64,000 nt of DNA from Amphiscolops sp. MND2022 (Eukaryota), in NCBI GenBank assembly GCA_964187785.1, contig OZ076409.1, positions 7,628,001-7,692,000 of the forward strand. The letters run 5' to 3'. The first letter of the stretch is position 1; each line of letters starts with the position of its first letter. Positions 17,675 through 49,900 of the stretch are shown one piece after another. The notes under the pieces were generated by a model, which did not search any database, was not told the DNA's origin, and saw nothing but the letters and a program-made list of their open reading frames with translations. The position numbers and the translations under genes were made by a program.

Positions 17675-18910
17675 ATGACAACCCAAAAGCAGGACGTCTG
17701 CTGTTTCGGAGACGTGCTTTGTCACATTCGGCGGAAAGTAATACATGTTTTCTAATAGCTGAAACTCGTTATATCATAATTACTGTATAAGGAAGAAATC
17801 TACAGACATGGAATACTTCGGACAAAAGTCGTCTCAATCAAGTGTTGCATCTCAACAGAACAGTTTCAAATACTGTATTCATGTAACTTCTAGCAAAGGA
17901 ACTTCCATGCTAGAGCTGAGCTGGGACAGTGCTTAGGTTGCCTGGACAGGAACATAGTCTATACACAAGCCTAAACACTAGTTTCTCTTCCGAAAACGGT
18001 CTCCTGGGGGACTTCTGTAGCGTCGAGGAGACTTCTGATTTTGGAGCTCCGTGGTGACATACTGGAACACTTAAAGTCCAGAAACGTCCCACAAGCACGT
18101 AAAAACCGTTTTCCAGGTTACCTGAGACTTCCTACATTCCGAGGTCCAAAGGTGACAATTATCCGAACTACTTTTATTGGCTACCCTAATCGAGATTGCT
18201 TGATTTTCTTACATGCTGCATGGGAACATGCATGCTAATTGTTTACAAAATTCATGAAGTATACATGGAAAAGTTTTGTAGAATTATAAAGCAGATTCCA
18301 CATTTTCAATTACAACTCAAAAAATTTCCACTTCTTCACCGGCGCGATCACTTTGTTTTCACGCATAAGTTTCTCAAGTAAGAAACTGTTTCAATAACAG
18401 TCAGTCAAATTGCACGCTGAATATGACGTTGCTTTGAAACAAATGATGTGACTGAAATTTACTTGCATTGAAATTGCGATATAATTAAAGAGGTATCAGC
18501 GGTTGTCAAAATTAGAACGGCGTCCTGATGAACCCTGCATAACGCCGAGTCTCGGAATAGCCGCCAAATTTAAGACGCTTTTTATAGGCAGTCTGATAAA
18601 ATTAAATCGAGTAAATTTTCATAAGAATTTGATAAAGTCATATATTTCCAGAAATCTGAAAAATAGCTCAAACATAGAGAGTTCTGTCGGCAAAACACTG
18701 AATCAAGATCTGAGCGCGTCCTTGATCTGCGGAACAGTCTATGCGAGGTATCGAGTATGCCAAAGTCCATAACTCCGTTGCTGAAATTTTGATTTCATGT
18801 ACCTGCCAAGGGTTTCATGTTGTACGACACGTTTCGAATTTTCAAACACTTTCTGGTAGGTGCTCTATCACCAGGCTAAGGACGTTACATCACTCCTTTG
18901 TAACTCAAAC

Positions 18911-20681
18911 TGTCGCCGGGCTTCCCCTGCGAGATGTCCGGAGTGCAGCATCAATGATCAGTTCAACTTGCTCCTTCCTACCGTCTGAGACCCGAAGATC
19001 CGAATCAAATCATCATCAGTGTACAAACTTCAAGAACAATTGAAGTTACTTAAACTGAGATAATTGTTTTGAATGTTTGTTCTTGTTGCTATTTTCTTAG
19101 CATTCGTTTGTGTTATAATGTTCGTTAATGTTGAAGCGGACGCCTTGTTGCCTCCACTGATTTAATTAAAACAGCGGTTCAACCGTTGGCAAATTGAAAG
19201 AAAAAGAAAAAAACTTTGATCAAATAAATTAGTCTCTAGTGACAATGTTACTAGTTGACCCAAGCCGAGCCTTTATTTTCACTGCCACTTTACCTCATAA
19301 GAGTGTACTGTAGTTTGATTTAGCTTTCAAAATAATAGAGCATTTGTAGCAAGACTATGTAGGAAGCTTTCATAATCAGCATGATGAATTACCCATGAAA
19401 CAGCATACCGTGCTCATACTTCTTTTCATAGACAGTTTATACTGCTTTATGCAGTTCTTACTAAGCCACATATGCGGCTTTTGCTAAAAAACAGTATGAT
19501 GACTACATACGTGCGGATAGTTATGCTACTTACCGCATTATGCGGAAGTATTGTAAAAACATCATGACGACTACATCCGTGTACACGTTTATACTCCTCA
19601 CCGCATTTTGCGGAAATATCTCGAAACAGCATGATGTTTAATTCATAATTAACATAATGAACAGCAGTGGAACAGTACCGATGAATTATACTGCATTATG
19701 TGGTTTCCATAAAACAGTACAAATGCGGATATACTGACAGAACGTCATAATCCGCATATTGCTTCTACAGTAATTTACTGATGTAGCTGTGCTATATTTA
19801 GACCTTCTAGGGGTATGACGTTATGAATTATTTTTAATCCCTGACCCTTGAAACATGGCGTTATGATGATTTGTATAAAATTGATTGTCATGCTACTAAA
19901 AATACCAACCAATAGAATCATTCGAAGCGAGTCCCTAAGAAATCAATTTTCCCCACATTCATTCGAAAAAATCTCACGCAGAACACAGTCACTCAATTTC
20001 ACAAACTACCCACAGTCCTCAAACTTTGCAGTTTTCTTTCTTTGTAAAGATAACTTCCACGATTTCATTTCACCAAAATATTTTTGTAATTCAAAGATTT
20101 CTACACTCAACACTGTTTTCATCATGGGAAATAAAAGAAATAGACGTTCAAGAAGGATAGAATCCCAGTCATCAGACAGAGAAGAGAATACTTCAGAAAC
20201 AAGCTTCACTCAAGGTAATGCGACTTTAGTTGATGTTTCTGAAAATGGTAATAACATTTTTGACAGGAACTTAGGTAGTGAACTGACAGAACCTTCACAA
20301 ATCAGCAATGAAATAGAAGTAATATCCCAGAGATTGTTTGAACAAAACAGTAACAAGATGACGCAAATTGAACAGCAACTGAATAGTAAATTCGAAGAGA
20401 TACTCAGAGAAATTAGAACAAATAAAGAAAGCAATTTGGCAAATGATGGAGAGGATGCCGAGAACAATAGGCCAGGTCCATCTAACTCGGAAAATAGAGG
20501 TCTCAGGAGTAATCACGCATCAAATACAACACTAGACAGAGACAAAAATCAGGATGATCGGTTTTGCCCATCTGAAATGAGTGAATTAAGACAACCGTAC
20601 ACACCACTTGGAATTGCTAATGAGACACTAGACGAAACTATCATTATAAACGAAAACAGACAGAAAATGCCGATCATCACA
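18911..20681 (+). repeat. 5' LTR of element B
   Basis: Matches 33813-35584; TGTCGCC...ATCACA. Confidence 0.95.
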
Positions 20682-20694
20682 TGGTGACTGGACC
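20682..20694 (+). promoter_or_regulatory. Primer-binding site of element B (TGGTGACTGGACC)
   Basis: Directly follows the LTR end; TGG is complementary to the tRNA CCA. Confidence 0.8.
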
Positions 20695-21780
20695 TACCAA
20701 GAACATCCTGAGACAAAGCTTTACTAACTCTAACACAACAAAAAAAATTGGACCACACGCAACAACTCTTCTCGAACATCCTGAAACATCAGACCCTGTC
20801 AGCCAAATTGCATTAGCAATTGAAAAACAGGCACGAAAAAACCCAGAACCCTCACTCTATCACCCGAAAAACACACTCACCTTTAACGGTAAATCAGAGA
20901 AAAATGAAAAGTTTGAATACTTTGAAAATCTTTTTCACACCACACTCAAGATGCAACCTCATCTCACTGAAGAGATGAAAATAAACCATTTTCCAGCCCA
21001 TCTCAGAGGACTGGCGTTAAAAACCTTCAAAAACATACAACGCACACCTACCACAACACTTGAAGACATCTTGGTAGTCTTCCGCAGAAAGTATGTCAAG
21101 CCTGAATCTAGTGCTTCAGCCAAACATAGATTCAACAGGCTTATGTTCCAACCCGAAAACCGGAAGCTGCCCGACTTTCTTGAAGATTTACAAGAGACTG
21201 CTGAAAAAGCATTTGGGGAAGCAGCGCCACAGATGATCGAAAGTCTCATATACGCAAAAATGTCTCCCCATCTAAAGAAATCAATCAACCAAGCGTACCT
21301 TGAGAATGGTACCTACGACCAAATTGTACGACACTTAGAACGCGAAATGGAACTCAATGGACTCGAAGCAGATGAGCCCTTAGTCAAAACACAAATGACA
21401 GCTGTAAAACAGCAAACTAACACACAAAACAATAAAAGTTCGACACAAAACACAAAACCTAAAACCAAAACTCCCAACACAGTTCCCAACAACACCCTAC
21501 AAAACAACCAATGTCGTTATTGCAAAGAAGAAGGTCACATGGCGAAGGAATGCCCAAAACTTGCAAGACGGCAAAAACTCGATAACGACCCAGACGCACC
21601 ACGATGCTCCCATTGTAACACGACAGGACATGAAGAACCCAACTGTTACTTCGGAGCTAACATGGAAAATTGTCCACCCAAATGGACACTGACAGAAAAT
21701 CAACAAAAACTCATTGACGAGTATAAAAAATCAAACAAACCCATCTTTCCACGAAACACGAAACCTTCAACATCGAAGGA

Positions 21781-21787
21781 TTTAAAC
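21781..21787 (+). other. -1 frameshift slippery site U-UUA-AAC (element B)
   Basis: Immediately before the gag TAA; the -1 frame is open into the 21856 ORF. Confidence 0.8.
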
Positions 21788-24700
21788 TAATAAAGCCACG
21801 CCTTCAAACAGAAACACCACAAAAACAACACTCTACTGATGACTGGCAGCATCAGTTGAGCCCCAAACCAACAAAAATTACAGTCTTTGATCATAAAACC
21901 AACAAAAACGACTCTCACACTACAGACACATCAACTACAAATCCAGATACTCAAACGGAGGATCTATATGACCTACTCAAAGATGCTCCTGATAACTACA
22001 TCCTACGACAAATCTTTGAACCTGCAACCGAAACAGAAACACAAAATCAACACCCTAACACCACACAACCTCAAGAAACACAAACTGACCACCTAAACAC
22101 ACAATCCACATCAACAACTCAAACCGACGAAGACGTCACTTCAGAACTAACTAAAACTCTCTTTTGTGCATCACCTGGAAAACAACCCCTCCTTGATAAT
22201 GATGGTTTCAATCATCTAACCACAGATGAAGGCAATAACATCTTGTCCTTGAACCTTTCTACAAACCTTACACTCAAAAAGAAACGTCATATGTACTATT
22301 TCCCAATGGATTTCGAGTAACTAACCCTGGATGGACTCATAGATACAGGCGCCTTAACAAGCGCAATTTCAGAAGCTGATCTTAATAAAATCAAACTTAT
22401 ATCAAATGAAGCAATCAAAGACACTGGCCCAGCACCTAACTTCCAAATTATGGTGGCAAACGGTCAACTTGAACGCCCCATTGGAACCGTCCTCCTCGAA
22501 TTCGAGGTAGCAGACTTCCAATTTCAAGAGGATTTCATAGTAATGAAGACACTACCCAACCCACTCATAGGCCTGTGCTTCCTACAAAGACACAACGCTC
22601 TTTTCGATATTCGACAAGGAATTATTACATTCCCATACTTGTCAATGCAACTGCGTCCCGAACACACAACAAACACCCGAACAGCAACACCCTTGCTGAC
22701 TGAAACCACTTATACCTTACAACCTGGAGAAACTCTTGCAATCTCCAGCAAAATGCCACACTTGATAGACCACAATGCAACAGGAATTGTTACTCGGTCA
22801 TCACACATGGAGGAACATGAGAGCATTTTCATTACCTCATCATTAAGCACAGTCAACAACAACGCAGTGGGTTACCAAGTGATCAATTTCTCGGATATGC
22901 CCTACACCCTTCCAGTGGACATACATATGGCAGATTTCCGAGTTCTCACACCAGAACAAATCAAACACATCAAACCAGTTGATCCATCAACCCTCACCTT
23001 CATGATGCATCAACATATAGAGAACACCGACCTTTACCTCAACCAACTGATGAAAACAAACCATTCATCGGATGAACAAGAAATGTATTGGTTCCCGACA
23101 CCTGAACAACCTGGGGATCCAGAAACATACACGCCCATACAAAAACGAATTTATGATGAACTACTAGAGCTCAAACAACTTGAACAATTGAACCAAAACG
23201 ACAACGCACAATCTAGAAAGCAATTCCTTGACCATTTCGACTGGACCGACACTACCCTAAGCCCATTCGAAAAACAACACATTGAAGACATTCTGGTGCA
23301 ATACCACGATATCTTTGCCAGACATCGGTTTGAAATTGGCACCAATAGAGAATTTAAGGTTAAATTGACTCCTAATGATGATAGGCCTGCCTACAGCCAA
23401 AGTCTCCCTACACCAATCAACCTCAAGGACGACATAACTGTTGAACTAGCCCTACTTCATCGTTATGGAATCATCACAACTTTACCTTTCTCTAAGTACG
23501 CAAGCCCTATCTTTGCCCAGAGAAAACCAAATGAACGCCTTCGTCTCCTGGTAGATCTGCGCAAAATCAACAACCTCATCACGCAAGATTATGTAAACAA
23601 CAACCACCCAATTAGCACATTGTCAGATGCTGCACAGCACATGGCCGGAAAGAAGCTTTTTTGCAAACTTGACTGCTCACAAGCATACCATTGTTTGCAG
23701 ATGGCCGACTACAAGTCAATACAAATGCTAGCTTTCAACTTCGCAAGCCGAACCTTTGCATACAGACGCCTTGCTCAAGGTCTTAGTCGTTCATTATCCG
23801 CTTTCTCTTCCTTCATGAGAGAATATCTAGACAAGGCCATCAAAGCTGATCAGTGTGCACAATACGTTGATGACATTGGTATAGGTGCGAACGATTCAAC
23901 ACAACTCTGCATCAACATCGAAACAGTCTTTGAATGCATCAGAAATGCAGGACTTAAACTTACAATGGCTAAATGCCATTTTGGTGTCAAACAGGTCGAC
24001 TTTTTGGGACGAACAATAACCCCACAAGGAGTCTCACCACAAACCGAGAAAGGCAAACAATTTCTTCAAAAACTCAAATTCCCAAAATCCAAAAAAGCCC
24101 TTCAAAGGTATATTGTATTCCTCAACTATTACCGAAACTACATCCCTCGTTTATCAGAGAAGCTGTCGCCTTTCATCAAACTACTCAAAAAAACATCACA
24201 ATTTTGCATACCAAACACTGTTTTGGACACATTCAAAGAATTAAACCAACAACTGGAGAAATCATGCAACCTTGCTCTCAAACAACCAATACAGAACAAA
24301 CAACTCATCCTGATGACAGACGCAAGTTTCACAGCGGCCGGTTATGCCATCATGATTGAAGATGATCTCAACCAAAAACTCCAATCTCGAAGGAAAACCT
24401 ACGCCCCGATTGCGTTTGGCTCAGAAACGTTCAATCCAACACAACTCAAAATGTCAATTTACGCAAAAGAATTCTTAGCAATTTATTTCGCGTTTTCCGA
24501 ATTTGGACACCTTCCCTGTTATAGTTTTCACAGACAACCGTTCAGTAACACGCTTCTTCCAAACAAAAATAATACCACCACCCCTCTGGAACGCCTGTGA
24601 CTATGTACTGCAATATAACTTCGTCATAGCACACGTTGCAGGAGCTATGAACACAGCAGCCGATTTCCTTTCAAGAGCGGAAGTAAACACGACTGAAAAA

Positions 24701-26757
24701 CTCGAAATGAACATCCGAAATGATGTTGCAACCAAAGCAATCGAAGTCAATATTCAGTCCACAGGAGTTGCTGAGGAAGAAACTCTCTACATCCTTCCGG
24801 ACGAATCCCCCACGGAACAGCAATTGTGGGAAGAGAAAAACACAATACGCTCTATGGCAAGAACGGAAACCCACAATGATCCAGAAAACGTAGTGTCAGA
24901 ACTCCAAACTTTCCATAAACCCACAGCGGGCACAATCAATTACCGCGAAGGGCACTTCAAAGACAACGCCAAAATCCACTTGGAACAAAACAATGACCAA
25001 GTACTACGCAATCTCCGATATAAACTTGAAGGCGAACCTTACGACGAAACAGAGTTTACGCAAGATTATCGCTACAAACACTATTTACAAAATATTACCA
25101 GAATTGAAATCAAACAAGATGTCCTAACACGAAGATACTACAATGATACTGGGATGATATCACATTACCAGATACTCTTACCAAAACAACTACTAGAAGA
25201 ATTCCTTCATGCACTTCATGGACATAACGCAAATCATCCTGGAATAACAAAGATGATCCAAGAAGCCCGGCAGAAATATTACTATCCCTGCATAGCCAAA
25301 TACATTCGAACTTGGGTCACAAAATGCCAAATGTGCATACAAAACAAACGGATCAATAATGACCTCCTCAAAACCGAACTACTGAATTGTCCTGAATGGG
25401 ACCTAGGTCCGGAAGATATATTGCAGATGGATATCCTTCCGAATCTTCCGCCAAGTGGAGGTTACGACAATATAATCACAGCAATAGACGTGTGTTCACG
25501 CTATCTGTTTTCATATCCAGTTACAAGAATTACTGCCCCAGCAGTAGCAAAAGTCATTATGGATATCTTGTGCAAACACACATATCTACCCACAACAATC
25601 ATTACAGATATGGGCACTCAATTCAACTCACAGGTTACTAAAGAAGTTGCAGCAGTTCTAAACATTGAACTCAAACACGCAACGACAAAACATGCCCAAA
25701 CAATTGGATTATTAGAACGTACCCATGCATCGGTTAAAGCGCATCTTAAAGCAGCCACTGGAGAATTCAGAAACAACTGGCATAAGTTTCTGCCATTGGC
25801 AGTCCTGAACCATAATACAACCTACAATGCAACACTTGGTTGTGAACCTACACGGGTCTTCCATGGAAGAATCCCGCACAATATACTTGATTTCAAACTT
25901 GGGTACAATCCAAACCCTAGATTTCAACCCCAAACTGAAGTAGCAGAAGAGGTACAAAGACGGATTGCATTACTTCATGACCAAACAAAGAAAAACATTA
26001 TGCAATCTTACCTCAAATATAAAGCATACTACGACAGGAAAGCAAAAGCAGCACCTCTCACAACAGGGGACTATTGCTTTATCTTGAATCCGAAAGCAGA
26101 CACACAGGCGACCAAAATACCCTTCAGAGATTTCCGCTGGGTTGGCCCTTATAAAGTCGAAAAAGCCCTACCGAATAACAATTACATTGTTCGTCGATTG
26201 GGCACAAATAAAACCCAATTGCTTCATCGTATACGACTACGTATATACATTCCACAAGCACCTCTAGCTGACAATTTTGTCAGAGAGTCTGAATGGCAAA
26301 AAGAAGATACACTTATTGCTCAAGATGACCTATATGCCCACACTTGGGACACAAATTTGGATCGAGCCCATTTGACACTGACCATGAAATTATTGATCAG
26401 CAAGAAGATATGGTAGAATACGAACCTGCTTCTCAACCTGGAATAAACCGCCCTCCCTCCCCTGATAATCCTCAAAACAGTGGGGGGACCCCATCAGAAC
26501 AACCTGCTGTGACCGACAAAGAACCCCAGATAATTGATGAAACCATTACAAGAAATGAAAATCAAGAGCTCATACCAGAAATTTCAAGAAATCCAGAAAC
26601 TTTCCAAGAAATACCAACCCAAAATTCACCAAAAACTCCCGAAAATATCCCAGAAATTGATGCACAAGAAACACAAAAAACAGTTAACACGAGAGGTGAA
26701 AAGTACAACCTACGCCCGAACCCTAACCCTAACTACTCAGACTCATACAGATACTAA
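21781..26757 (+). pseudogene. pol: Pol of element B (PR, RT, RNase H, integrase), with a stop at 22318 and frameshifts near 24510 and 26355
   Basis: LIDTGA, YVDD, TDAS, HHCC (HGHNANH...CQMC), integrase D,D,E core, C-terminal KYNLRPNPNPNYSDSYRY. Confidence 0.93.
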
Positions 26758-27032
26758 AAAAGACAAAATCAAGAGACTCAAAGACTTTAACTAAATACAG
26801 TCTCTGTTTATCTTTTGCTCTCACATCTTTTCTCTTCATTTTTTCTTTCCCAATCAGTTACTTCAGTAACCGTTTTGAGAATTGATTTACTGGAATCAAC
26901 AATACTAACTAAACCAAATCAGGTGTAATCAACCTGAAGCAAAGCAAACAAAGTATACAAAGAACAAAGCAACAAATAAAAGGCATACAAGCAACATCGC
27001 AATCTATGGAAACAGTAACAACTAGACGTCTC

Positions 27033-30000
27033 TCATTTACCACCGGGAGATGGTCTCTTCTTTATAGACAGTTTCTTCGCAGACTTAGTCTGATCAGGGG
27101 GCAGAAACGGAACCTCGCTGACAAAGCGCGGAACAGCCAAAGTAGCAGTAGCCAATTGCAGAGTCTGATCGAAACCTCTTGATGACCCACCGGAAGGCCC
27201 AACCGGGATTGGCCCTGGAACAGCAAGGTTCGAACTGGGTAGAGGAGTCTTGGGCGATTTACTAGTAGAAGAAGTGACCCGATCAGTTGGCGAAGAAGAA
27301 GTTGAACCAGAAGGTTTAGGATCAACATCCAGAGAAGTCCATGCCCTTTCTTCATCAGTAACCGTGCAGGTGAAACGGGACTCAAATTTATTCTGTAGTC
27401 GTCGTCGGCGAGAAGAGCAACTGGAACTAACGTCCCAAACAGAATAATCGGGAATTTCCAGCAAACTCCTCCCTTTTCCGAGCAAAGAAAAAATAGGGGC
27501 AACAGTTCTAGGATTGGAAAATAACCCTAAAACGTTGGGAATGCCGACCAGAGAAGACTGAACACTCCTAACTGCAGAAGTAAAATCACAGTTGTCAGAA
27601 GCCAAGTCAGGTAATGCAACGGTGAAAACAGGTGGAATGCAAATAGAGCTAGAAGTTCCAAGACAACACAATTTGAATACAGAGAATAAATTAGTGCGAC
27701 ATTGGAGCTCATAATAACCGGACATGAAGGTAACCCAGTCTGTGTCGTACTGTACTTCGCAAGACCTGAACTTCTCAACAAAAGACCGGTACTCACTCAG
27801 GATGAGTGGCTTGATGGAACTTGATATCCAGTCCCGTTGTATGAGGAAATCGCACAATTGGTCTGATTCTTCTTCGTAGTCCTCCTCCCGCCCATGTAAT
27901 ATCACAGCTTCGTCGAAAACAGACATTCCTCGGATAAGCTTCGACTTACGGATGCTGTGTTTCAGGAGCAAAGTACATAGACTTTTATAAAAACACAGTG
28001 CTTGTTCGACGAAATGAGTTGGCGTCGGTAGGTCACTCTTATTGACTAAGTCGGCAAAGTCTTTATTGCGAAGAAAATCAGTGACGCTTTTGAAAAGAAG
28101 ATCTGAAGACAAGTCGATAGATAAGAATCGGTCCCAGTCAGAGATGTCCCCCAAGAAAGAATCTGACAAGATTGTCTGGAGCTGACTATACACAAATGTG
28201 GCGTAGGAGCGACTCCTTTGAAAGCCGATTGGTCTGAAGCATTTCCAGATTAAGAAAAGGAATCAGACATTAGAAGAATGGAAAAAAATAGAAAAAGGCT
28301 AACAATGAAGAAGCACATTCCGTACTAGAAACAACTTGGCGGGATAAGTCTTGTCTTTAAATATCGTCTCATCCAAACTTTTGGGCTGAAACATCAAAGT
28401 TTGACCAATAAAACTATGTTAGAACAACGATATCTGCAATTTCGAAAACGAATATTACCTCTTTCATGTGGTACTTGAAAGCCTTGATCCGGTCAGTGAG
28501 ACGGAGATAAGCAACCACATGATGCCAATTCTGGTACAGTTCTCCAAGAAGAATAGCGCACTTGTCATAACTGTATTCGAAGCTACAGATCGCCTAAAAG
28601 AACAAATTCATGCCTGTGAGAACTAATAGCATTGGAAATGAACTCAAGACATGACGCATTATGATGTCTTCCGAATACAGTATAGGATGCTGAACAGCAT
28701 ACAGCATAAGATATGCGGACTATACGGATTAACCGTGAAACCAGCATAATTCAAGAAAAACAGTATAAAAGAATAAATCACGCTGTTTTTGGAAGAAAAC
28801 AGTATAAAAGAAATAATGACGTCGTTTTGGAAAGAAACAGCATAGAAGAAAAGTTCATGCAGTTTCCGGAAAGAAACAGCATAGAAGAAAAGTTCATGCA
28901 TTGTCCGGAAAGAAACAGCATAGAAGAAAAGTTCATGCGGTTTTCAAAAGAAACAGCATAGAAGAAAAGTTCATGCGGTTTTCAAAAGAAACAGCATAGA
29001 AGAAAAGTTCATGCGGTTTTCGGAAGAAAACAGCACTAAGAAGCATCCATGCGGTCTCCGTAAAGGAGTCAGCATAGAAGAAAGGTTTATGTGGTTGTTG
29101 GAAGAAAACAGCATAAAGGAATACTCATGCGGTTTTCGAAGAAAACTGCATAAAGAAGCACCCATGCAGTTCCCGTAATGGAAGCGCATAGAAGATGTGA
29201 TTATGCGGATTTCGGAAAAGATGGCATAAGGAAATACCCACACTACAAGCAGAATAAAAACAGTATAAAGATAAAATCTATGCAGTTTGCAGAAAATAAT
29301 GACTATGCGGAGTAGCAGCGTAATGAAACGAAGAAACTACGGTCAAGATCCAACAAAATATGCGGTAATATGCGGTTTTCTGAAGACGTCTTAGGGGTGT
29401 TAATTACAACTAGGAAGGGATATAATAATGGTTAAACAATGCAAATGCTTACTTCTCGAAGCTCCTGCAAGTTGTTGAGCCAAGCTGATCCCAAAGCTGT
29501 CCGGAGTTTCATCAAATGAACGTGTAAAACGCTGTGTATGTCATAGCGGTCCAGGATTTTGATACATGGGCCTGCGAGCATCTTGTATAGATCTTCATAG
29601 CCGAAAGTAGCAACGATGCAAATGGGTGTGGATTGGTCCAGCTCAGTAGTCAGTGTTTTACTGACCCGCCCATCGAACCCGAGCAGAGAAAACACAGTGG
29701 GTGGATTACTTGTAACAGCAAGGAAAGAAGAGATGGCATCGAGGACTTTTGGAGCTGTTTGAAGACTGTTGGGAAACTCGGAAAGGCAGAGACTATTATA
29801 CACATTCCCAGACCAGAAGGCCAAGTTGACCTGAGCAACTTTAGTCGAAGAACTGATTTGAAGGGAACACAAGCCCCGCTGACCAATAGATGTGGCTGAA
29901 TATCGTAGTAACTCGTGAAACATGTAGACGAGTATCCCCTGTGAATCATATGAATTAAATGTATGATAAATAAATGTCCAACTCAGTCAGATAACGAAAG

Positions 30001-31325
30001 ATACTTACGAAAACACGTTTCTGTCTCCAGTCGTACTGTGGGAATCTAGTGAGCCCCTGTGGCTCGACATTCAAATTGGACAAGAGTGAAGGTAATAGGT
30101 CCAACTCTCCGCCAGATTGGAGTCCTAACAGGAGAAGCCTCATCTGGGAGCATGCTACTGATGAAGGATCAAGAATTTCAGTGTCTTTTGGCAACTCCCT
30201 CTGTCCTGGCAGCAGGTGACATTCGCTCAAAGTTGGAGTGATTGGAAACGTCTGCTCAGCTTTTTCCCGAGCTTCATCTAGAGCAACTCCAGTTATCTCT
30301 CGCTCATTTTTGTCATAAAGTGGAAGTCCTGGCGTTTCTAATCTAATTCGGTGCTCTCGAACCAAGTGAGCATCAGTACGGTAGTGCGATAGAATTTCGA
30401 GCGATCCTTTCGTTTTTAGAGACAATTCTACTTGGCATACTCTACAACGCCACTTGTGAGGATTCTCGTTCGGGTCAGCCGGGCCTGTGACAAAGAATTT
30501 GAACACGGGATGTTTTTTATACATCTGAGCAGAAAGTTGCATTCGGGGTCTTGGTCTTTTGCTAACCACAACTTGTTCATCAGATGTTGTTTGGACCGGG
30601 TCAGAAGTTTCAGTGTTGTATGAACGCCTGAGAGAGCGTCTTTTCCCCGGAGATGTAATTGGAGTCCGTTCTGCGGCACTACGTCGTTGATTTGTCCGTG
30701 TGGATTCACCTCCAGAAGGGCCCGTTGTGGGTTCAGATCTTTCAACAGCGTGCGCAGACAATGATTGCTCAAGCTTTGTACTGACAAGAGTTTCAAGTCT
30801 CTGCTCCAGTGCCTCTAATTCGGAACTTGTAACGAAATTACCAAATTGTGTTACTGGGAGCGATTGAGCATTAGTAGCTGGTTCTCGGCTTTCTTGCTCG
30901 GCGGAGGCTGTTACTGCAAGTTGACCGAAGTAACGTGTGGCTGGGGAAGTTCGAGAATGGATTCCTTCCAACATAGGAGTAGTCGCCCGTGAGGAACATT
31001 CATCAGGTAGAGTTCTTCTTTCTCCTGCAGGAGCGTTTGGATTGGAGCAATCGGGTTGCTCACCAGTCACATCAAGAATGAGATGAAGATTAGAATCGAT
31101 GGAAGTGGCAAGGAAACTAACAGGTTCTTTGAGACTTGTCATGCTGTGGTCAAACGAGTGTTTGATCCCGTCTTGGTCAAGAGTTACGTTAACAGTTTCA
31201 CAGAAAGAACGCTCTGGTTCAGGGGTAGAATGATGAAGGGGAGCAACAGACGTCAAAACCGTCAATTCGTTGGAAGTTGTTTGTCTCTGGTGAGAGGATT
31301 GAGAATCGGTATGAGCTGGAACACA
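27033..31325 (-). CDS. Antisense spliced accessory gene of element B (BED-like Zn-finger, hAT-transposase-like)
   Basis: Exons about 31300-30009, 29938-29453, 28593-28459, then about 28385-27033 with a probable further intron; GTAAG donors and CAG/TAG acceptors. Motifs WRCRVC...KTKG..EIL.H....H, L.EL...W..V..YL, GMSVFD, FKLCCL. The start and the last junction are uncertain. Confidence 0.72.
28830..29020. repeat. About 38-bp tandem repeat (GAAAGAAACAGCATAGAAGAAAAGTTCATGCGGTTTTC), roughly 5 good copies plus degenerate copies over about 28700-29380
   Basis: Visible tandem units inside intron 2 of the antisense gene; no unique spacers. Confidence 0.9.
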
Positions 31326-31997
31326 TAAAGAATTGGAAATAAAGATGACAAAAGTCGATGAAAATCAACCTGAAAACGGATGTTATCCGACTAAATTGTG
31401 GGAAAGTGATCACTTCCTACTTCGAAATTAGAGTTAACTCGAAAAAATTGTTCACAACTTGAAACAGAAAGTCCGAAAATGGACCTGTGGAGAGCGGATG
31501 TGAAAATAAAATTTGTTCAGCGACGGAAACAGGAAGTCTTCAAGCGACACTTGTGAAAGTCCAATATGAAACCAAATACCGAAATATTTTCATCCAATAA
31601 TTAAAGGTTGGAAATGTACAAACCTTGTGTTGGCAAATCGGTTCCTTCCTTGCAGCCAGACATCGCTTCACCCAGTGGATCCATAAGATAAACTACACAA
31701 CGCTGTAGTCGATTGCAAAACAAAGAGTCCGTGAAAATGGCAGTGTTGGGAGAACGAAAACCAAGTGAAGCTAATTCAGAATAACGAATCGGGAAGTCGA
31801 AATTGGATAATTCAAACGAGAAATGTGAGAAACTAAAGATGACGGAACTATAAATGACTTGAAGACTCTGAAAATTGTAAAAACTACGAAGACTGAGATT
31901 TAATAATGTAGATTGAAATTATCAAGAAATCAAAATTATCAAAGCAGCTGGAAACAGAAGGCGTGGCAGTTAACGAGAAGGCAATAAAGCAAATGGA

Positions 31998-32041
31998 TGA
32001 CGTCACTAATGGAGTTTTCAGTGTATCTCAAATCTGATTGG
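31998..32041. promoter_or_regulatory. CRE-like TGACGTCA and CCAAT box (CTGATTGG) in the divergent spacer between the antisense gene and ORF3
   Basis: CTGATTGG-like boxes occur in the equivalent spacer of A (2024), C (51070) and D (about 54315). Confidence 0.4.
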
Positions 32042-32911
32042 TCGAGAGCAAGTATTCAGTTTGGCCATTTCTGCCAGAATGACTAAATTGGAGGAATCCA
32101 TACCTTATAAGGAAACTGACGGACTTTGCGTATTAACACGCAACACGCTGCTACATTGAAAGTGCACTATGCTGTTCTGCATTAAAAACAGCATAATGGT
32201 GCAGCGCTATCGTGAACAACAATGTGTTATGGTATAGAGAAGAAAATGTAACAAGGAAGCATAATGGGATTATGCGGAATTTAAAGTGAAACTGCATAAA
32301 GTGTTTATGCGAAAAACTATCAAAGACAACATGGTGAAGTAATAACGGCGATATGAGAAATTATGATGCATTATGATGTTTTCTGTAAGCAGTTTATGAT
32401 GTGAATCACTACTAATACTGCTGATTTGAATATTACACACCTACTAGTGAAAGAAAGAAATTCCACAATTTTGAGAAAGATGATTCATACAACAAAGTGT
32501 GAAATCTTCACATGATTAATCTGAATGGACTACAACCATGATCTATTTTGATGATGAGTAATTAAAATTCAGTTACCCTATATGGGGTAGCTACCGGCAA
32601 TATATGAAAGAAACTCTGAAAACCAACAGTTATTGATGATCAATTAAAGAAACTCGATGATGCTAGATTTCCATAAATTATTTGATAATTATCCTAAAAC
32701 CCGGGAAAAGGGTGACGCGAAAATGTGTTGGAGCAATTTATATAAAACCCATAAACCTATAAAAATCTAGAAAACTTCACCAGTTTGGTCTTAAATTTTC
32801 TGAAAACAGCTGATCTTCGCCTTACAACATTCTAATCTTGTAGCAATTCTTGATTTATAATTGAATAACAATTTGAACCGTTTATACCAATTGATTTGAT
32901 AAAACATAAAA

Positions 32912-33859
32912 ATGGACAGCACACCTGTTGGAAAAAACAACAACACGAGGAACCCAATGTTAATTGACACAGCATTGGACTTAATAAATATCTCCAGTAG
33001 CTCTGAGGAAGGATTTACGGTGGAACGTTTCTCCTTGCCCGAACTAGAAGATAGGTTCAGAGTTGCACCATCATCGATCACGAACATGCCAACTGCTTTC
33101 ATGGGGTCGGCAGAGGCCTCATTATTTGTGACCAATTCAGTTGATGCCAGGTCAACAGGATGTAAAGACACAAGAGGAACGTCCATTGAAACTGAGCTGA
33201 TGGACCTACTGAACGACATACCGGATATTTCACCCACAACGTTCATTGATACCTCCGACAAAGAAAAGAACCCCTTCCCAGAGGCTAATTTCGCGAATGT
33301 ACAAAGGAACGCGTATGGTCGCCCTACTCAGAGAGTGTGCCCTATGCCCAGACAGCAACAAGAGACGCAACCTCTTAATGCCAACCTACCAACTATACCC
33401 AGCCAAACAAGCGCTTTTACAGCGTATACAGCACCACAGCAGAGAACAACTGACCCGAATCCTCGTCCTACACAGCAAGCACAGTATTTGCCGATGCCCA
33501 TCCCGTTCTACCCTAATGCGTGGAACAATATGGGATATGGGACATTGGGCCATAATATGCAACCACCACCATCAAGCAACGTTCCCGCCCATAACGGAAC
33601 CTTGTTGCAAATGAATCTTCCAGTCATGCCCGAGGTCGCAGGTTCTTGCCCAGGTTGCACTAAAACCTATGACCAAATTGCAGTAGAGACATTGACCAAC
33701 TACGTTGCTTGGTCCGAGTATCCTGATGAAACAATCCGCGACAGAAACGTCAGATCAAGGGCTTTTGTGGACGGATTTGGAGCTGCGTTAATCTGCTTCA
33801 AAAATGCTGGACTGTCGCCGGGCTTCCCCTGCAAGATGTCCGGAGTGCAGCATCGATGA
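32912..33859 (+). CDS. ORF3 of element B: 315-aa accessory protein of unknown function (SIM-like motif, P/Q-rich linker, C-terminal CxxC domain), overlapping the 3' LTR
   Basis: Intact ATG-initiated ORF. The C-terminal block aligns without gaps to ORF3 of C (CxxC.K/R.S/T.D.I..E....Y...S....E.......R..AF/Y..G). Confidence 0.75.
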   Translation: MDSTPVGKNNNTRNPMLIDTALDLINISSSSEEGFTVERFSLPELEDRFRVAPSSITNMPTAFMGSAEASLFVTNSVDARSTGCKDTRGTSIETELMDLLNDIPDISPTTFIDTSDKEKNPFPEANFANVQRNAYGRPTQRVCPMPRQQQETQPLNANLPTIPSQTSAFTAYTAPQQRTTDPNPRPTQQAQYLPMPIPFYPNAWNNMGYGTLGHNMQPPPSSNVPAHNGTLLQMNLPVMPEVAGSCPGCTKTYDQIAVETLTNYVAWSEYPDETIRDRNVRSRAFVDGFGAALICFKNAGLSPGFPCKMSGVQHR

Positions 33860-35584
33860 TCAGTTCAACTTGCTCCTTCCTACCGTCTGAGACCCGAAGA
33901 TCCGAATCAAATCATCATCAGTGTACAAACTTCAAAAACATTTGAAGTTACTTAAACTGAGATAATTGTTTTGAATGTTTGTTCTTGTTGCTATTTTCTT
34001 AGCATTCGTTTGTGTTATAATGTTCGTTAATGTTGAAGCGGACGCCTTGTTGCTTCCACTGATTTAATTAAAACAGCGGTTCAACCGTTGGCAAATTGAA
34101 AGAAAAAGAAAAAAACTTTGATCAAATAAATTAGTCTCTAGTGACAATGTTACTAGTTGACCCAAGCCGAGCCTTTATTTTTACTCCCACTTTACCTCAT
34201 AAGAGTGTACTGTAGTTTGATATAGCTTTCAAAATAATAGAGCATTTGTAGCAAGACTATGTAGGAAGCTTTCATAATCAGCTTGATGAATTACCCATGA
34301 AACAGCATACCGTGCTCATACTTCTTTTCATAGACAGTTTATACTGCTTTATGCAGTTCTTACTAAGCCACATATGCGGCTTTTGCTAAAAAACAGTATG
34401 ATGACTACATACGTGCGGATAGTTATGCTACTTACCGCATTATGCGGAAGTTTTGTAAAAACATCATGACGACTACATCCGTGTACACGTTTTTACTCCT
34501 CACCGACTTATGCGGAAATATCTCAAAACAGCATGATGTTTAATTCATAATTAACATGATGAACAGCAGTGGAACATTACCGATGAAATATACTGCATTA
34601 TGTGGTTTCCATAAAACAGTATAAATGCGGATATACTGACAGAACGTCATAATCCGCATATTGCTTCTACAGTAATTTACTGATGTAGCTGTGCTATATT
34701 TAGACCTTCTAGGGGTATGACGTTATGAATTATTTTTAATCCCTGACCCTAGAAACATGGCGTTATGATGATTTGTATAAAATTGATTGTCATGCTACTA
34801 AAAATACCAACCAATAGAATCATTCGAAGCGAGTCCCTAAGAAATCAATTTTCCCCACATTCATTCGAAAAAATCTCACGCAGAACACAGTCACTCAATT
34901 TCACAAACTACCCACAGTCCTCAAACTTTGCAGTTTTCTTTCTTTGTAAAGATAACTTCCACGATTTCATTTCACCAAAATATCTTTGTAATTCAAAGAT
35001 TTCTACACTCAACACTGTTTTCATCATGGGAAATAAAAGAAATAGACGTTCTAGAAGGATAGAATCCCAGTCATCAGACAGAGAAGAGAATACTTCAGAA
35101 ACAAGCTTCACTCAAGGTAATGCGACTTTAGTTGATGTTTCTGAAAATGTTAATAACATTTTTGACAGGAACTCAGGTAGTGAACTGACAGAACCTTCAC
35201 AAATCAGCAATGAAATAGAAGTGAAATCCCAGAGATTGTTTGAACAAAACAGTAACAAGATGACGCAAATTGAACAGCAACTGAATAGTAAATTCGAAGA
35301 GATACTCAGAGAAATTAGAACAAATAAAGAAAGCAATTTGGCAAATGATGGAGAGGATGCCGAGAACAATAGGCCAGGTCCATCTAACTCGGAAAATAGA
35401 GGTCTCAGGAGTAATCACGCATCAAATACAACACTAGACAGAGACAAAAATCAGGATGATCGGTTTTGCCCATCTGAAATGAGTGATTTAAGACAACCGT
35501 ACACACCACTCGGAATTGCTAATGAGACACTAGACGAAACTATCCATATAAACGAAAACAGACAGGAAAATGCCGATCATCACA
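33813..35584 (+). repeat. 3' LTR of element B
   Basis: Matches 18911-20681; followed by TSD CAAAC. Confidence 0.95.
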
Positions 35585-36000
35585 CAAACTTATTGATGTT
35601 TCTCTTCTGTTCTCTGTGGAAGAAAGCACAATGGAGTGTACGAAATCAGCAAAAAAACAATATGTTGCGTTATCCTTACGAACGACTCTAAGATGACCGG
35701 GAAAGCCTTTCGAGTTAGTAAAGCTTGGGGCCCATTGCCTCTAAGCAATTAAGGTACAATGTCCGAAAAGTAGTATTTTTGGGATTTTTCACAGAACTCT
35801 TCTTTCGGTCTGTAAAAATTACAAACAAACGCGTAAAAGATCACAAATCTGAGGTCTTTACAACCAAGTTACCAAACAACTTTGCTTCCAGGTACTAGAT
35901 ACTTTGGTGCTAAGAAAAATCATTAGAAAAGGGAAAACAAGTTCAGAGATGCAATTTTTCGTGAAAAGTGGTATATGCATTCCAACGCAACTTGAATTGG

Positions 36001-46999: not shown

Positions 47000-49900
47000 T
47001 GTACATTCGACAGTTAGAAGTGCGAGGTGCGGGTTCCGCCAACTACGAAAGAAGAGGAGGATCGGCAAAAGCTTTTTTCCGTTCTCCTCCGTTTACTGTC
47101 ACTAGGAGGCTTCAAAGCAGATTCTTCTATGACAGAATCTTCTGTTTCACTCCAGACGGAAACCTTCTTTGGACAGACCAGCACGGCGCGATAGGAAGAA
47201 AGCAGGGACTTGTAATCTTTAGATCTTCCAAAGTTATCTACATAAGTCCATGGGTCGTAAGAAGGGGCGAAGGCGGCCCAACCAAATTAAGCAGAGAGGA
47301 GGGAGAACTTTTCTAGATTAGAGTCGTCGTCACCACAAAGGGTTACCCAACCAGACACTCCAGCCATATAACTGTGGCATAATAAAATAACGTCTGTGAA
47401 CCTGCTCTGGTGTCCAGCCGATGTAATACTCCCCACTGTGATGTCAGGGTAGTTGGGACTCGGGGTTGTGGCACACAGTCAACGTAACTTGAACAAATAC
47501 AAAAGGTGTTCGCGAGTCTGGAGGAAATCGAGCCCAAGTAAGAATCCAATCAAGGTTCTGTGAGGTGCTGGTCACGTCGAAATCAGGGCCATAGCAAACG
47601 CGCAAGTGATCAAGCAGCTGGGTATACTGATCTCGACATATGGACTCATTGGCCTTAGTGACCCAAGAACGGAGGCAGAAACTACTATAAAGCAGGTCAA
47701 AGTGTCGAAGCGCTACTTCCATGGGCTCTTTAAACTTAATGAAAGGGTCAAATGCAGCCAGGCGCTTGATGATGTCTGTACTTAGCCCGGTTTGGCGAAG
47801 CACCTCATTGATGAGATATTGGATGTAATGGAGGGCACCATCTATAAGTTCTGCTTTGACGGTCGAAGTTGTCTTCTGGATAGTTGCACGATCTGATTTC
47901 TTTCCGAAGTTCAGTCCTTCAGCCTTGGCTTTGCTGGATGCGGCTACTTTGTTGGAAAGTTTAAGGCGTAGGAGGAACTTTTCCCCGTACATGAAGATTC
48001 CTTCACTGATGTGGACCTTCAAAAGCAAAAACCAGGCATTCTCCAATGGGACAATGTCGGGGTGCAGCAACGAGAGCACAACTGGAAGAGGAATAGGCTT
48101 GTTTCCCACAACAGAAGACAGAGACATTTCGTCAGATCTGGAGACTTACGGTGAAGCTGGTCACACTTTAGAAAAACTAACAATCGTTGATGAGCTTGCA
48201 GAAGAAATCTAGTTTCACGACGAAGAACTCATCGCAAATCAGGGACCAATCGAAACTTTGCACCTGAAACAAGGAACCCTCAGTCCTTGAGTTTTATAGC
48301 TCCCATTTTAAAACCAGTCAGGACCATGACATTCGTTCAAAGCAACTAGATAATTCGAGATACAGGCAAGTAACCAGCTCTTTTGCGTGATCCCTGTCTG
48401 GGAGCATTGATGGTCATATAACGGGTCACTGATTTCCTTTCGGCAATGAGTTCTCGACAGAGGTCAGGAAGGGTCGGAATGTCGAGCTTGCTGGATGATA
48501 TGCGAAGTACTGTTGATCTGTAATCTGCTCAGCGGTGTCGCTCATGGCGCAGTTGAAGAATTGTTTGAAAATCGCCTGAAAACGACAAAACGTGTTGTCA
48601 AGACTGGGATGAAAAGGTGACTTGGTGGTTAGTGAAGGACCCCACACGTGACTATAAGTTTTTCAGGACTGAAACATCTCTGAATGATGAAGTCGATGAA
48701 GTGCCCGACTAGGCAAAGTTGTTCCGAGTTCGGGATTCGATGATAATTGTGATCCCTTTAGCAAAGTCCTCATAAAACGGGAATCTTTCATCAACGTCCA
48801 CCAGTTCTACGTGGACGAATTAAGGCGAGTTCTGTGGCCAGCTCCAATTTCGTCAGGATTTTCCCGTTTCGTCCCCGCACTCTATGTTGGACCTTTCCAC
48901 TGATTGGGTTGATACTTTTAAAGTGTTCGTATCGCCACCTTTGGTAACGCCTCAGGTGCCTTTCTGTAAGATGGTACCCAAGCATCTCCAATGTCCCTTT
49001 TGTCTTTATGGAAAAATTCTTTTTGCAAATTTGGCACCAGAGCAAATGAGGGTTGTGGACTGGATCCGCAGGGCCAGATACGATGGACCGCGTCCAGCCA
49101 ATTTTTGCAAAGAATTCTCCGCGAATAGGTACGCCTCTCTGAGATGGTCGTCTGGTCTTTTCTGTCTTTTGGCCTTTGAGGGTCTTGGGTTTTGTCTTCT
49201 TTTGCTTCCTGGTGTAGTTGCAAAAATGTGGCGTCTTGGCTGCTATGCTATGTGGTATCACCACTTTCTGGCGGAAGCGCGGAATGGTCTGCTGTTGAAG
49301 ATGAAGAGACTGGATCCAACCTAAGAGCCCTTTTGAGGGAATCTGAGATTAGAGCCATTTTGGTGGTGCTGTCACTCTCAACCTCACCATAAAATAAAGA
49401 GCCTTCCTCATCTTAGGACCGTTCATTCCCAACTTCAAAGGGAACATCGCTGTCTGATTCAGAGGAGGTCGAGGATCCATGGACCCAGGTTCCAGGTATT
49501 TGAGCTCGGTCCCTGGAGCGGAATTGGGCCGTTCTGGATGGACCAGTTATGGGAGTCCCCTTAACAGAGTCAGTGAACATCCGTTCCATAGTGGAGTATG
49601 ACATTCTGATGGTCTCGTCCGTCAAAACTCTTAGCAAGTTGTATACCTGCGATTCAGTGAAGGCAACAGTGGTGCGCCCAACGGCGAGTCTGAAGGCATC
49701 AGTTTCCTCGAAGAATTTCTTGAGAAATGCACGGCTTCGCTCAGACAGTTTGGAGAGATTGTCTAGTTCAGTGACAACTATTTGGTCTACGGTCATTCCC
49801 GACGCACTCCTATGAGTTCCGAAGCCCGATTCGTCTCCTCCATCTGTTCCCGAAGCTGAATCCACGGGATTTCGGCCAAAAAGTTTAAAATGGTCCAACT

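Follow-up and report, generated by a model that had tools for sequence, protein, structure and literature searches.

The 64,000-nt stretch of the Amphiscolops sp. MND2022 genome analyzed here (hereafter the window) contains four Ty3/gypsy LTR retrotransposons, A-D, each of which has a multi-exon gene, read from the strand opposite to gag-pol, in the interval from pol to the 3' LTR (Table 1). The paired LTRs are 98.7% identical in A, 98.25% in B and ~90% in C. Element B has TG..CA LTR ends (the true start of its 5' LTR is probably the TG at 18911), a 5-bp target duplication (CAAAC) and a TGG primer-binding site, with the sequence TGGTGAC abutting the 5' LTR. Pfam searches recovered, in order and on one strand, the domains zf-CCHC, gag-asp_proteas, RVT_1, RT_RNaseH, Integrase_H2C2 and rve; in relatives the tail of pol extends to about 26755. 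The same searches matched no domain in the antisense frames of the window, and no Rfam family was matched over 18900-35600. A further sense-strand frame, ORF3, shows third-position periodicity when B is compared with the same-genome locus L009 over 32890-33889, and is an unbroken frame of 327 aa in that locus; it belongs to the element and is separate from the antisense gene. Element A has neither an integrase nor the 3' portion of the antisense gene, and the antisense gene is disrupted in all four copies of the window.

Table 1. Features of element B and splice junctions of the antisense gene in the other copies (window positions; a slash between letters marks a splice junction)
Feature	Position	Strand	Details
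B, 5' LTR	18909..20681	+	98.25% identical to 33811-35584
B, gag-pol	20624..26416	+	zinc knuckle, protease, RT, RNase H, integrase (Pfam)
B, exon 5	27033..28233	-	family-frame stop codon at 27035-27033
B, intron 4	28234..28303	-	70 nt, GTTAGC..CTTCAG, phase 1
B, exon 4	28304..28385	-	82 nt, phase-1 end
B, intron 3	28386..28458	-	73 nt, GTAATA..TTTCAG, phase 0
B, exon 3	28459..28593	-	135 nt
B, intron 2	28594..29452	-	859 nt, ELRE/GTAAGC..TTTTAG/AIC, phase 0
B, exon 2	29453..29938	-	486 nt
B, intron 1	29939..30008	-	70 nt, KRVF/GTAAGT..CACAG/GIL, phase 0
B, exon 1	30009..31315	-	1,307 nt; low-complexity N-terminal part, CCHH zinc finger (..HKWRCRVCQVELSLKTKGSLEILSHYRTDAH..)
B, intron 0	31316..31623	-	308 nt, GT..AG, phase 1
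B, exon 0	31624..31684	-	ATG + 20 codons + 1 nt, phase-1 end, ..PTQ G/GTTTGT
B, promoter-like block of antisense gene	31957..32077	-	invariant in 7 sequences of 4 subfamilies
promoter-like block: GCCACGCCTTC	31967-31957	-	
promoter-like block: CRE TGACGTCA	32005-31998	-	
promoter-like block: CCAAT box	32041-32033	-	
promoter-like block: CTGGCAGA	32077-32070	-	
B, ORF3	32912..33859	+	315 codons; stops 48 nt into 3' LTR
B, 3' LTR	33811..35584	+	pairs with 5' LTR
A, intron after zinc-finger exon	5098..5312	+	215 nt, SDAL/GTTAGT..TTTTAG/SVV
C, retained intron-1 acceptor	48567..48585	-	TTTTCAG/AIFKQFF; AG ends 48576, exon 2 from 48575
D, intron 1	56991..57061	+	71 nt, KRLN/GTAAGA..TTTCAG/TIF
D, intron 2	57546..57649	+	104 nt, ELTK/GTAAGC..TTATAG/AIF; without tandem array
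D, exon 3	57650-57784	+	135 nt
D, intron 3	57785..57907	+	123 nt
D, exon 4	57908-57989	+	82 nt
D, intron 4	57990..58088	+	99 nt

In B and 18 relatives from the same genome the antisense gene consists of six exons separated by five GT..AG introns. An earlier note on this DNA had placed an intron after the zinc-finger exon in B, D and A, a second shared intron in B and D, and a retained acceptor in C; every one of these coordinates is right, with canonical signals in the sequence. To these we add introns 0, 3 and 4 of B (31623-31316, 28458-28386 and 28303-28234) and a frameshift that the note did not contain: a 34-nt deletion near the start of exon 5 shifts the frame, such that the spliced frame of B ends at codon 753 (28048-28046). 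Intron 2 of B holds a tandem array (28757-29157) with a period of about 38 nt and 10.4 copies, and this array retains 68-80% nucleotide identity between subfamilies. Intron 0 contains a conserved ACAG/G block. A middle exon between exons 0 and 1 was considered and rejected, given a phase misfit and a 1-nt difference in loci L011 and L015, where the conserved block within intron 0 shows no consistent reading frame.

Among the 18 loci fetched from the same genome, intron 1 has GT..AG ends in all 17 that are readable (L006 was left out, its exon-1 match stopping short of the exon end) and intron 2 in 18/18, including L015, whose row is offset by a 7-nt insertion with the AG visible. Gene-model runs gave a similar picture at introns 1, 2 and 3 and the intron-4 donor, where the ends were set by protein matches alone: canonical ends were recovered in 10/10, 9/10, 9/10 and 10/10 of ten diverged loci, and in 7/8, 8/8, 7/8 and 8/8 of eight other loci, respectively. 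The intron-0 donor and acceptor and the intron-4 acceptor are canonical by construction in these runs, as the search patterns include GT/AG; L044 (no intron-0 donor pattern) and L041 (truncated exon-1 match) were dropped. Exon 3 measures 135 nt, and exon 4, with its phase-1 end, 82 nt, in B, in the families typified by L009 and in D, which share at most about 30% protein identity. Between subfamilies the introns are unalignable, with exons fixed at 486, 135 and 82 nt and phases kept. The introns show a pyrimidine-rich stretch before the AG, as do U2-type spliceosomal introns, and their position and phase are kept between homologues. Such a shared intron pattern lies far beyond chance, and the antisense gene is predicted to be spliced.

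Loci L009-L018 also carry the gene in the interval from pol to the 3' LTR, on the opposite strand, as does a distant subfamily (L045/L046) with 24% identity in exon 5 and 53% in the integrase. The layout of this subfamily is the same: introns 1, 3 and 4 occur at matching places and phases, and exon 4 measures 82 nt in L046. The subfamily has no intron 2; in its place is a fused exon of 621 nt, equal to 486+135, an argument for fusion of exons 2 and 3 that is one of continuity and length, since MAFFT failed to place the short exon-3 pieces. This exact fusion is the nearest substitute at hand for the removal of an intron in RNA. The gene keeps the same place and orientation in lineages whose integrases are only about 50% identical, and is part of the element. 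It is conserved in most family copies rather than captured in a single one: genome searches gave 151 scored matches among 3,063 candidates with exon 2, and 97 among 7,398 candidates with the distant exon 5, and Ka/Ks is below 1.

The predicted protein combines a CCHH zinc finger with a helical domain. No Pfam family could be assigned to it, either from the window frames or from 35 + 30 alignment members; this includes Transposase_28 (PF04195). Zn_ribbon_SprT matched 6/30 members at 0.0009 and zf-BED 2/30 with a best E of 0.067. No PDB sequence matched at better than E 10, and DUF4371 was absent from the genome search. A search against 1.84 billion representative sequences recovered 181 matches, the best 150 of which are pieces of 69-443 aa; none of the matched clusters that were looked up is named, and of ten such clusters one is from metagenome sources; further unnamed pieces (27 and 19) match in ENA. 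One remote match, P0127, is encoded with 100% identity in the same genome, and consequently these matches give no evidence of the family outside this species.

hAT transposases such as Hermes, and their domesticated relatives, resemble the protein in having a large, helical C-terminal part after a zinc finger. The gene might derive from a DNA transposase of hAT type that the clade's ancestor captured on a single occasion; it would now be a decayed remnant serving as a DNA-binding module, with a BED-like finger, a dead RNase H-like core and a helical C-terminal part. In the ESM Atlas, 23 of 30 matches to the features of exon 5 fall in Dimer_Tnp_hAT clusters, with scores up to 0.91, and one cluster at 0.90 is FAM200/GTF2IRD2-like, but the shared features (123-147 of 256) are below the 170 typical of true kin. 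The part comprising the finger and exon 2 scored 0.78 or less there, and its structure model (pLDDT 47.7) is too poor to judge. For exon 5 (pLDDT 71.7), residues 370-609 of the Hermes transposase (PDB 8edg) topped the 48,161 chains of a wide VIA-align search, although the alignment (Z 5.5, rmsd 8.4 over 167 residues) is within the chance range for helical models, and a Foldseek search of the PDB returned nothing at E <= 0.001, which counts against such an origin. In its favor, the stretches CSLQISSST and LLGFDGR of exon 2 resemble catalytic motifs one and two of Buster-type hAT proteins, and the zf-BED matches in 2/30 members would suit a BED-like finger. Against it, in hhalign comparisons with the profiles of six full-length hAT transposases from this genome, exon 5 reached a probability of 0.15% and exon 2 one of 0.26%, and Pfam hAT (PF05699), DUF4371 and FAM200 matched none of the 35 and 30 members. 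This lead is weak and failed the profile test; we regard descent from a hAT transposase as unlikely.

The spliced frame is open in 5/20 loci, a share biased upward by the choice of the ten diverged loci for long open frames; in the B family proper it is intact in one of ten. The five intact frames, of 1,099 codons (L009, L011, L013, L016) and 1,101 codons (L040), span three subfamilies with 50-62% protein identity. Moderately diverged pairs gave Ka/Ks values of 0.28-0.41 for exon 1, 0.13-0.18 for exon 2 and 0.13-0.44 for exon 5, with an outlier of 0.80 in one nearly undiverged pair. In comparisons between subfamilies the antisense gene shows saturated synonymous differences (pS 0.78-0.90) with pN of 0.18-0.41, as against pS of 0.55-0.62 and pN of 0.02-0.04 for the integrase. 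The antisense protein is under purifying selection, yet it evolves roughly ten times faster than the integrase. Recombination between the pol and antisense modules was also considered, and dropped as the synonymous sites of the integrase are near saturation too. At the sequence level, the earlier note's proposal of selection on a separate antisense transcript is supported: splice signals, phases and exon sizes are kept despite saturated synonymous sites, Ka/Ks is 0.13-0.44, frames of 1,099 or 1,101 codons stay open, and the ATG exon and the CCAAT/CRE block are conserved.

It could still be that the antisense RNA, rather than a protein, is what matters, its complementarity to the genomic RNA giving rise to dsRNA or small-RNA precursors by which the element is tuned or silenced. 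Antisense non-coding transcripts of micropia and TART offer a precedent (PMC7264820), and in C and D a second CCAAT/CRE block points antisense into pol. However, a Ka/Ks well below 1, fixed exon phases and sizes, and long frames maintained across saturated synonymous divergence are what one would expect of a protein and not of RNA alone; moreover, the antisense gene lies downstream of pol, without overlapping the gag-pol coding sequence. We therefore consider this reading very improbable. That the blocks are unspliced, being separate short frames or a nested foreign gene with coincidental GT..AG ends, is scarcely credible: though intron 1 of several subfamilies (69 or 75 nt, in frame and stop-free) could be read through, in the B family intron 1, at 70 nt, disrupts the frame if left in place, canonical ends recur at five sites in four or more lineages with unalignable intron interiors, the subfamily without intron 2 has its exons joined at the predicted point (by continuity and length), and place and orientation are shared by lineages with about 50% integrase identity.

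The reading we favor, to which we give a probability of roughly 0.78, is that an old and very abundant Ty3/gypsy clade carries its own antisense accessory gene of six exons, coding for ~1,100 residues. On the sense RNA the introns of this gene read CU..AC, which is not a splice signal. The genomic RNA started in the 5' LTR would carry them as reverse complement, ignored by the spliceosome, and reverse transcription would pass them intact to each new copy. Once integrated, the copy would be transcribed in antisense from an internal Pol II promoter, and the resulting pre-mRNA would be spliced and translated. The note had argued that antisense placement protects the introns in this manner. Its claim gains support from the position of the gene inside LTR-bounded elements (LTR identity of 98.3-98.7% in A and B) and from a genome-wide pattern search that found the edges of exons 1 and 2 separated by 60-80 nt at 26 places, as opposed to none at which they are 0-3 nt apart, as in an intron-free junction.

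The candidate for this internal promoter is the conserved stretch with the CCAAT box, the CRE and their flanking blocks, which precedes the ATG by about 300-400 nt. This block, whose putative promoter function is suggested by its sequence, is internal to the element, about 1.8 kb from the LTR, and the exon-0 ATG and donor are conserved in all aligned subfamilies. Palindromic AACAGCATA/TATGCTGTT sites are arrayed within intron 2, recur in 2-3 copies just upstream of the CCAAT/CRE block and occur once per LTR. It is conceivable, if rather doubtful, that the antisense zinc-finger protein binds these sites as the element's own sequence-specific switch, coupling antisense and sense transcription. 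If true, intron 2 would be retained for a regulatory role and not just carried along as a passenger, and the autoregulatory circuit would be one not described for animal retroelements. By analogy with the known systems below, the product would most likely bind nucleic acid in the nucleus and regulate how its own element is expressed or replicated.

Antisense accessory genes are on record from plant and fungal LTR elements and a few retroviruses (PMC7264820, PMC11963269). Among plant Ty3/gypsy elements they include gene23 of maize Grande, rice RIRE2, TRP28 of Silene Retand and PvRetro13, which agree with the present gene in lying antisense between pol and the 3' LTR and in being present in most copies (PMC7264820, PMC11963269). 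These sources describe a promoter of its own as shown for Grande and the plant products as suspected nuclear DNA-binding regulators; a role in dsRNA formation is discussed for the plant elements (PMC7264820). Retand also has tandem-repeat arrays in the region between pol and 3' LTR, whereas here the array is inside an intron of the antisense gene. The gene described here differs in having about 1,100 codons interrupted by five introns; neither paper uses the word 'intron' in its main text (PMC7264820, PMC11963269). The host is an animal and not a plant, its genome showing 146 matches to 7tm_1 and no chlorophyll a/b-binding family, and there is no sequence relation (no Transposase_28 or other Pfam match).

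For the fungal gene brtn, the source paper is reportedly Zhao et al. 2011, Virology 417:248. It is an antisense gene of Boty-like Ty3/gypsy elements in Botrytis cinerea and Sclerotinia (PMC7264820, PMC8365987), and likewise an extra antisense gene of a gypsy element outside plants. A counterpart in animals is HBZ of HTLV-1, alongside other retroviral antisense genes; there is again no sequence relation. A major HBZ mRNA is spliced, with one intron as against five here. HBZ is a minus-strand protein-coding gene of an animal reverse-transcribing element with a nuclear regulatory product (PMC11963269), and its promoter is within the 3' LTR (PMC7264820), in contrast to the internal CCAAT/CRE block of the present elements. 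Antisense accessory genes with their own promoter have already been described in plant and fungal LTR elements, and the principle is not new. No description of an antisense coding gene with several exons from an animal LTR retrotransposon turned up in the literature searched, which lacks most subscription journals and so leaves absence unproven.

The antisense gene is a clear illustration from nature of the rule that introns can persist in a retroelement only on its reverse strand. In this case the gene is large, has five introns and has been kept through the deep diversification of a clade whose copies number in the thousands in an animal genome. With its fast-evolving zinc-finger protein, a putative promoter of its own and conserved repeat arrays, it offers a handle on self-regulation in LTR retrotransposons. 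It also bears on genome annotation: ORF callers cut the antisense gene into unnamed pieces, as in the database matches obtained here, and pipelines in which such elements are masked will overlook a genuine family of multi-exon genes.

The antisense gene lying between pol and the 3' LTR of four LTR retrotransposons in the window, on the strand opposite to gag-pol, is supported as an intron-bearing accessory gene, with its splicing predicted from sequence. Self-comparison of the window, part of a 1.07-Gb assembly, delimited these four elements (A-D). The source is an animal, as judged from 146 rhodopsin-type receptor matches against zero for chlorophyll a/b-binding proteins. Pfam searches recovered a zinc-knuckle gag, protease, reverse transcriptase (RT), RNase H and integrase in the same order on a single strand of each, save that A lacks the integrase along with the 3' part of the antisense gene; because of this domain set and order we assign them to the Ty3/gypsy elements. 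The long frames opposite gag-pol in the window elements gave no Pfam match. In element B, our reference copy for coordinates, the ends are TG..CA, CAAAC forms a 5-bp duplication, and TGGTGAC stands immediately past the 5' LTR.

Element A is a deletion derivative (window 5733-6503) in which pol homology stops short of the integrase domains, at residue 116 in the integrase frame of B; its antisense gene is truncated inside exon 2, and therefore the pol and antisense frames overlap at 5733-5816. Element C carries an internal 2.96-kb tandem duplication (39431-45348) spanning RT-RNase H, with units 96.5% identical. Each LTR of B contains an open frame of 280-312 codons (19845-20687 and 34753-35691, plus strand) without a Pfam match, which stops at the border of LTR and primer site, where gag starts in a different frame. 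P0303, an RT relative of the clade in the protein collection, has a dUTPase domain (PF00692) beside its RT/RNase H.

By sequence comparison the homology among the window copies of the antisense gene is real but remote: the zinc-finger exon of B aligns to C across 87 residues with 36% identity (E 2e-12) and to D across 161 residues with 30% (E 5e-10), and the last exon of B aligns to D across 169 residues with 22% (E 1e-7). Exon 2 of B had 3,063 candidates in the same genome, of which 151 were scored matches. We fetched eight near copies of B (loci L001-L008, of which L001 is the window copy itself), ten more distant loci (L009-L018), chosen for long open frames and hence biased to intact copies, and ten longer B-family stretches (L035-L044). 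Exon blocks are present in all fetched loci, and the spacers between them show no protein-level match.

Every junction that the earlier note had named in the window copies was found, with canonical signals, and the check it had proposed, conservation of GT..AG across the family, came out in its favor. Intron 1 starts with GT[AG][AT]GT and finishes with a pyrimidine run and AG in 17 of 17 readable loci (L006 was skipped), and comprises four unrelated sequences of 69, 70 or 75 nt flanked by conserved exon edges; intron 2 has GT..AG in 18/18 loci and ranges from 614 to 1,106 nt. Alignment of the region 5' of exon 1 in seven sequences from four subfamilies revealed a short conserved ATG exon (exon 0; ATG at 31684 in B) ending in phase 1 (..ACACAAG/GT, slash marking the splice site) and a phase-compatible acceptor (GTGTTYCAG/CT), so the gene is predicted to have six exons and five introns. 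When the exons of single natural copies were joined by script, the spliced frame was open with all ends canonical for 1,099 codons in L009, L011, L013 and L016 and 1,101 in L040, that is, in five of 20 loci, from three subfamilies with 50-62% protein identity (L041 and L044 were not scorable). The frame of L017 is open for 1,095 codons, yet its intron-3 acceptor is GG; L015 bears a 7-nt insertion in exon 3, and the remaining scored loci are halted early by a stop. Since the search patterns for both intron-0 ends and for the intron-4 acceptor themselves contained GT or AG, only introns 1-3 and the intron-4 donor count independently, and 4 of these 72 positions deviate: L015 (an artefact of its insertion), L017, and the AT donors of L038 and L042. 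Window copy B has all five GT..AG pairs, its predicted introns lying at 31623-31316, 30008-29939, 29452-28594, 28458-28386 and 28303-28234; it has lost 34 nt close to where exon 5 begins, its spliced frame stopping at codon 753.

In the diverged subfamilies (L009-L018) intron 1 is 69 or 75 nt long, in frame and stop-free; retention would therefore add 23-25 residues with the frame unbroken, and this intron is the source of open frames of 650-711 amino acids. The 70-nt intron 1 of the B family has to be removed for the frame. Within intron 0 of B (31420-31500, minus strand) a block starting ACAG/G.., conserved in all subfamilies, resembles an acceptor plus short exon. As an exon joined to exon 1 it misfits in phase, and L011 and L015 differ by 1 nt inside it; perhaps the block is a regulatory element or an alternative exon.

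The introns are present in young copies with near-identical LTRs. On the sense RNA they read CU..AC, which is not recognised as an intron; they would be carried through the RNA INTERMEDIATE as the reverse complement, unrecognised by splicing. A pattern search of the genome found B-family exon 1 and exon 2 edges 60-80 nt apart at 26 places, with 23 of the gaps starting GTAAGT or GTGAGT, two having a mutated donor and one unrelated, and at no place were these edges 0-3 nt apart. A distant subfamily was found through P0127, a remote database match with 24% identity to B exon 5 that is encoded 100% identically in the same genome. It has 7,398 candidate places, and last exons of 471 residues are open in most copies listed; it is very abundant and young-looking, many copies with open last exons being 96-100% identical. 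Its layout is unchanged: the antisense gene runs towards an integrase that shares 53% identity with that of B. Intron 1 lies at the same point as in B (..SETV/GTTAGT..TTTCAG/SVL), exon 4 is again 82 nt with a phase-1 end, and intron 4 is retained; exons 3 and 4 of element D are also 135 and 82 nt. Intron 2 is absent, a continuous 621-nt exon standing in place of B's 486 + 135 nt. This exact fusion of exons 2 and 3 is the closest counterpart of a cDNA in the genome.

The earlier note had further proposed that antisense introns survive the RNA stage and that selection acts on a separate product, both of which find support in the sequences. Pairs at moderate divergence have Ka/Ks values of 0.28-0.41 in exon 1, 0.13-0.18 in exon 2 and 0.13-0.44 in exon 5, with an outlier of 0.80 in one pair with almost no divergence. 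Between subfamilies the antisense gene has reached saturation at synonymous sites (pS 0.78-0.90; pN 0.18-0.41), and the integrase of the same loci gives pS 0.55-0.62 and pN 0.02-0.04; thus the two genes have diverged together, the antisense protein changing about ten times faster. No sense-strand frames overlapping the antisense exons were found, so pol is not the source of this constraint.

The predicted protein comprises an N-terminal half of low complexity, a finger of CCHH type (in B, C-x2-C-x16-H-x5-H), the region encoded by exons 2-4 and the last exon, whose first 200 residues are modeled as a confident helical domain (pLDDT mostly >85; 71.7 for the whole model) and whose disordered, Ser/Pro-rich tail terminates in a basic cluster. 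It has no match in Pfam, PDB sequences or Foldseek. Derivation from a hAT transposase, toward which two leads point, both weak, is improbable: when its profiles were set against those of six genuine hAT transposases from this genome, the probabilities came to 0.15% and 0.26%. Because of these values, and because the model of the middle part is too poor for use, we do not class the protein as hAT-derived.

The upstream alignment of seven sequences from four subfamilies contains an invariant promoter-like block with CTGGCAGA, a CCAAT box CCAATCAGA, a CRE TGACGTCA and GCCACGCCTTC. The window has just four copies of the CCAAT-box 9-mer, one per element. In C and D this box lies about 45 nt from the CRE (D 59687-59790, plus; C 46427-46529, minus), downstream of the antisense-gene stop within the pol tail and pointing antisense into pol, not upstream of the gene. 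Another 9-mer, TATGCTGTT, has 11 copies in the window where 0.48 would be expected, all of them inside element B; the repeat unit of this candidate binding site is written AACAGCATA/TATGCTGTT. The 8-mer ATGCTGTT shows the same pattern in L009, with 28 of 33 matches forming alternating inverted pairs within intron 2; L011 shows it too. Nucleotide identity between subfamilies is higher in the intron-2 array (68-80%) than in the exons (about 64%). Window 26400-26790, covering the last ~120 pol codons and 30 nt past the stop, has about 80-82% nucleotide identity between subfamilies, against about 64% in their other coding parts, which points to an additional constraint that could be a cis element or the antisense transcript's 3' end; the pol frame of B itself ends early, at 26416.

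Coordinates of elements, loci and motifs (A-D in window positions, L loci in their own)
Feature	Where	Coordinates	Strand	Remark
Element A	window	LTRs 1-1395 and 11188-12582	minus	LTR identity 98.7%
Element B	window	LTRs 18909-20681 and 33811-35584	plus	LTR identity 98.25%
Element C	window	LTRs 36520-37912 and 52139-53839	plus	LTR identity about 90%
Element D	window	about 54000 to window end	minus	
Promoter-like block of antisense gene	B	32077-31957	minus	conserved upstream alignment
TATGCTGTT	B, intron 2	28693-29115		seven copies
TATGCTGTT	B	32168-32195		inverted pair, about 130-150 nt upstream of CCAAT box
TATGCTGTT	B, LTRs	19399-19407 and 34301-34309		one per LTR
ATGCTGTT	L009	5099-5641, 2013-2230, 91-98		
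ATGCTGTT	L011	3934-4564, 7561-7568		14 matches
Intron-2-free locus	L046	617-1205		
Intron-2-free locus	L047	4509-5129		
ORF3 counterpart	L009	545-1528	minus	

Element B has a third gene, ORF3 (32912-33859, plus), on the sense strand, located between the 3' LTR and the antisense promoter region, with its end lying 48 nt inside the LTR. Its coding nature is shown by a clear third-position periodicity when B is compared with L009 over 32890-33889; Pfam gave no match for it, and A, C and D have no homologue. ORF3 and the antisense gene diverge across about 1.2 kb, so the intervening region may be a two-way promoter.

Earlier reports describe accessory genes in antisense, placed between pol and the 3' LTR, in the plant elements Grande, RIRE2, Retand and PvRetro13, with an own promoter and a nuclear product in Grande, TRP28 proteins and tandem arrays in the segment of Retand from pol to the 3' LTR, and HBZ as the usual analogy among retroviral antisense genes (PMC7264820, PMC11963269); an antisense gene, brtn, is cited for the fungal Boty (PMC7264820, PMC8365987). 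The gene described here differs from the plant and fungal ones in its animal host, its much larger size (about 1,100 codons), its five introns and the lack of any sequence relation, and from known antisense accessory genes in its internal promoter-like block. Our literature search, incomplete in coverage, returned no animal LTR retrotransposon described as carrying a gene of this sort. Antisense accessory genes as such are thus already known, and it is the animal-hosted, five-intron form that is of moderate interest.
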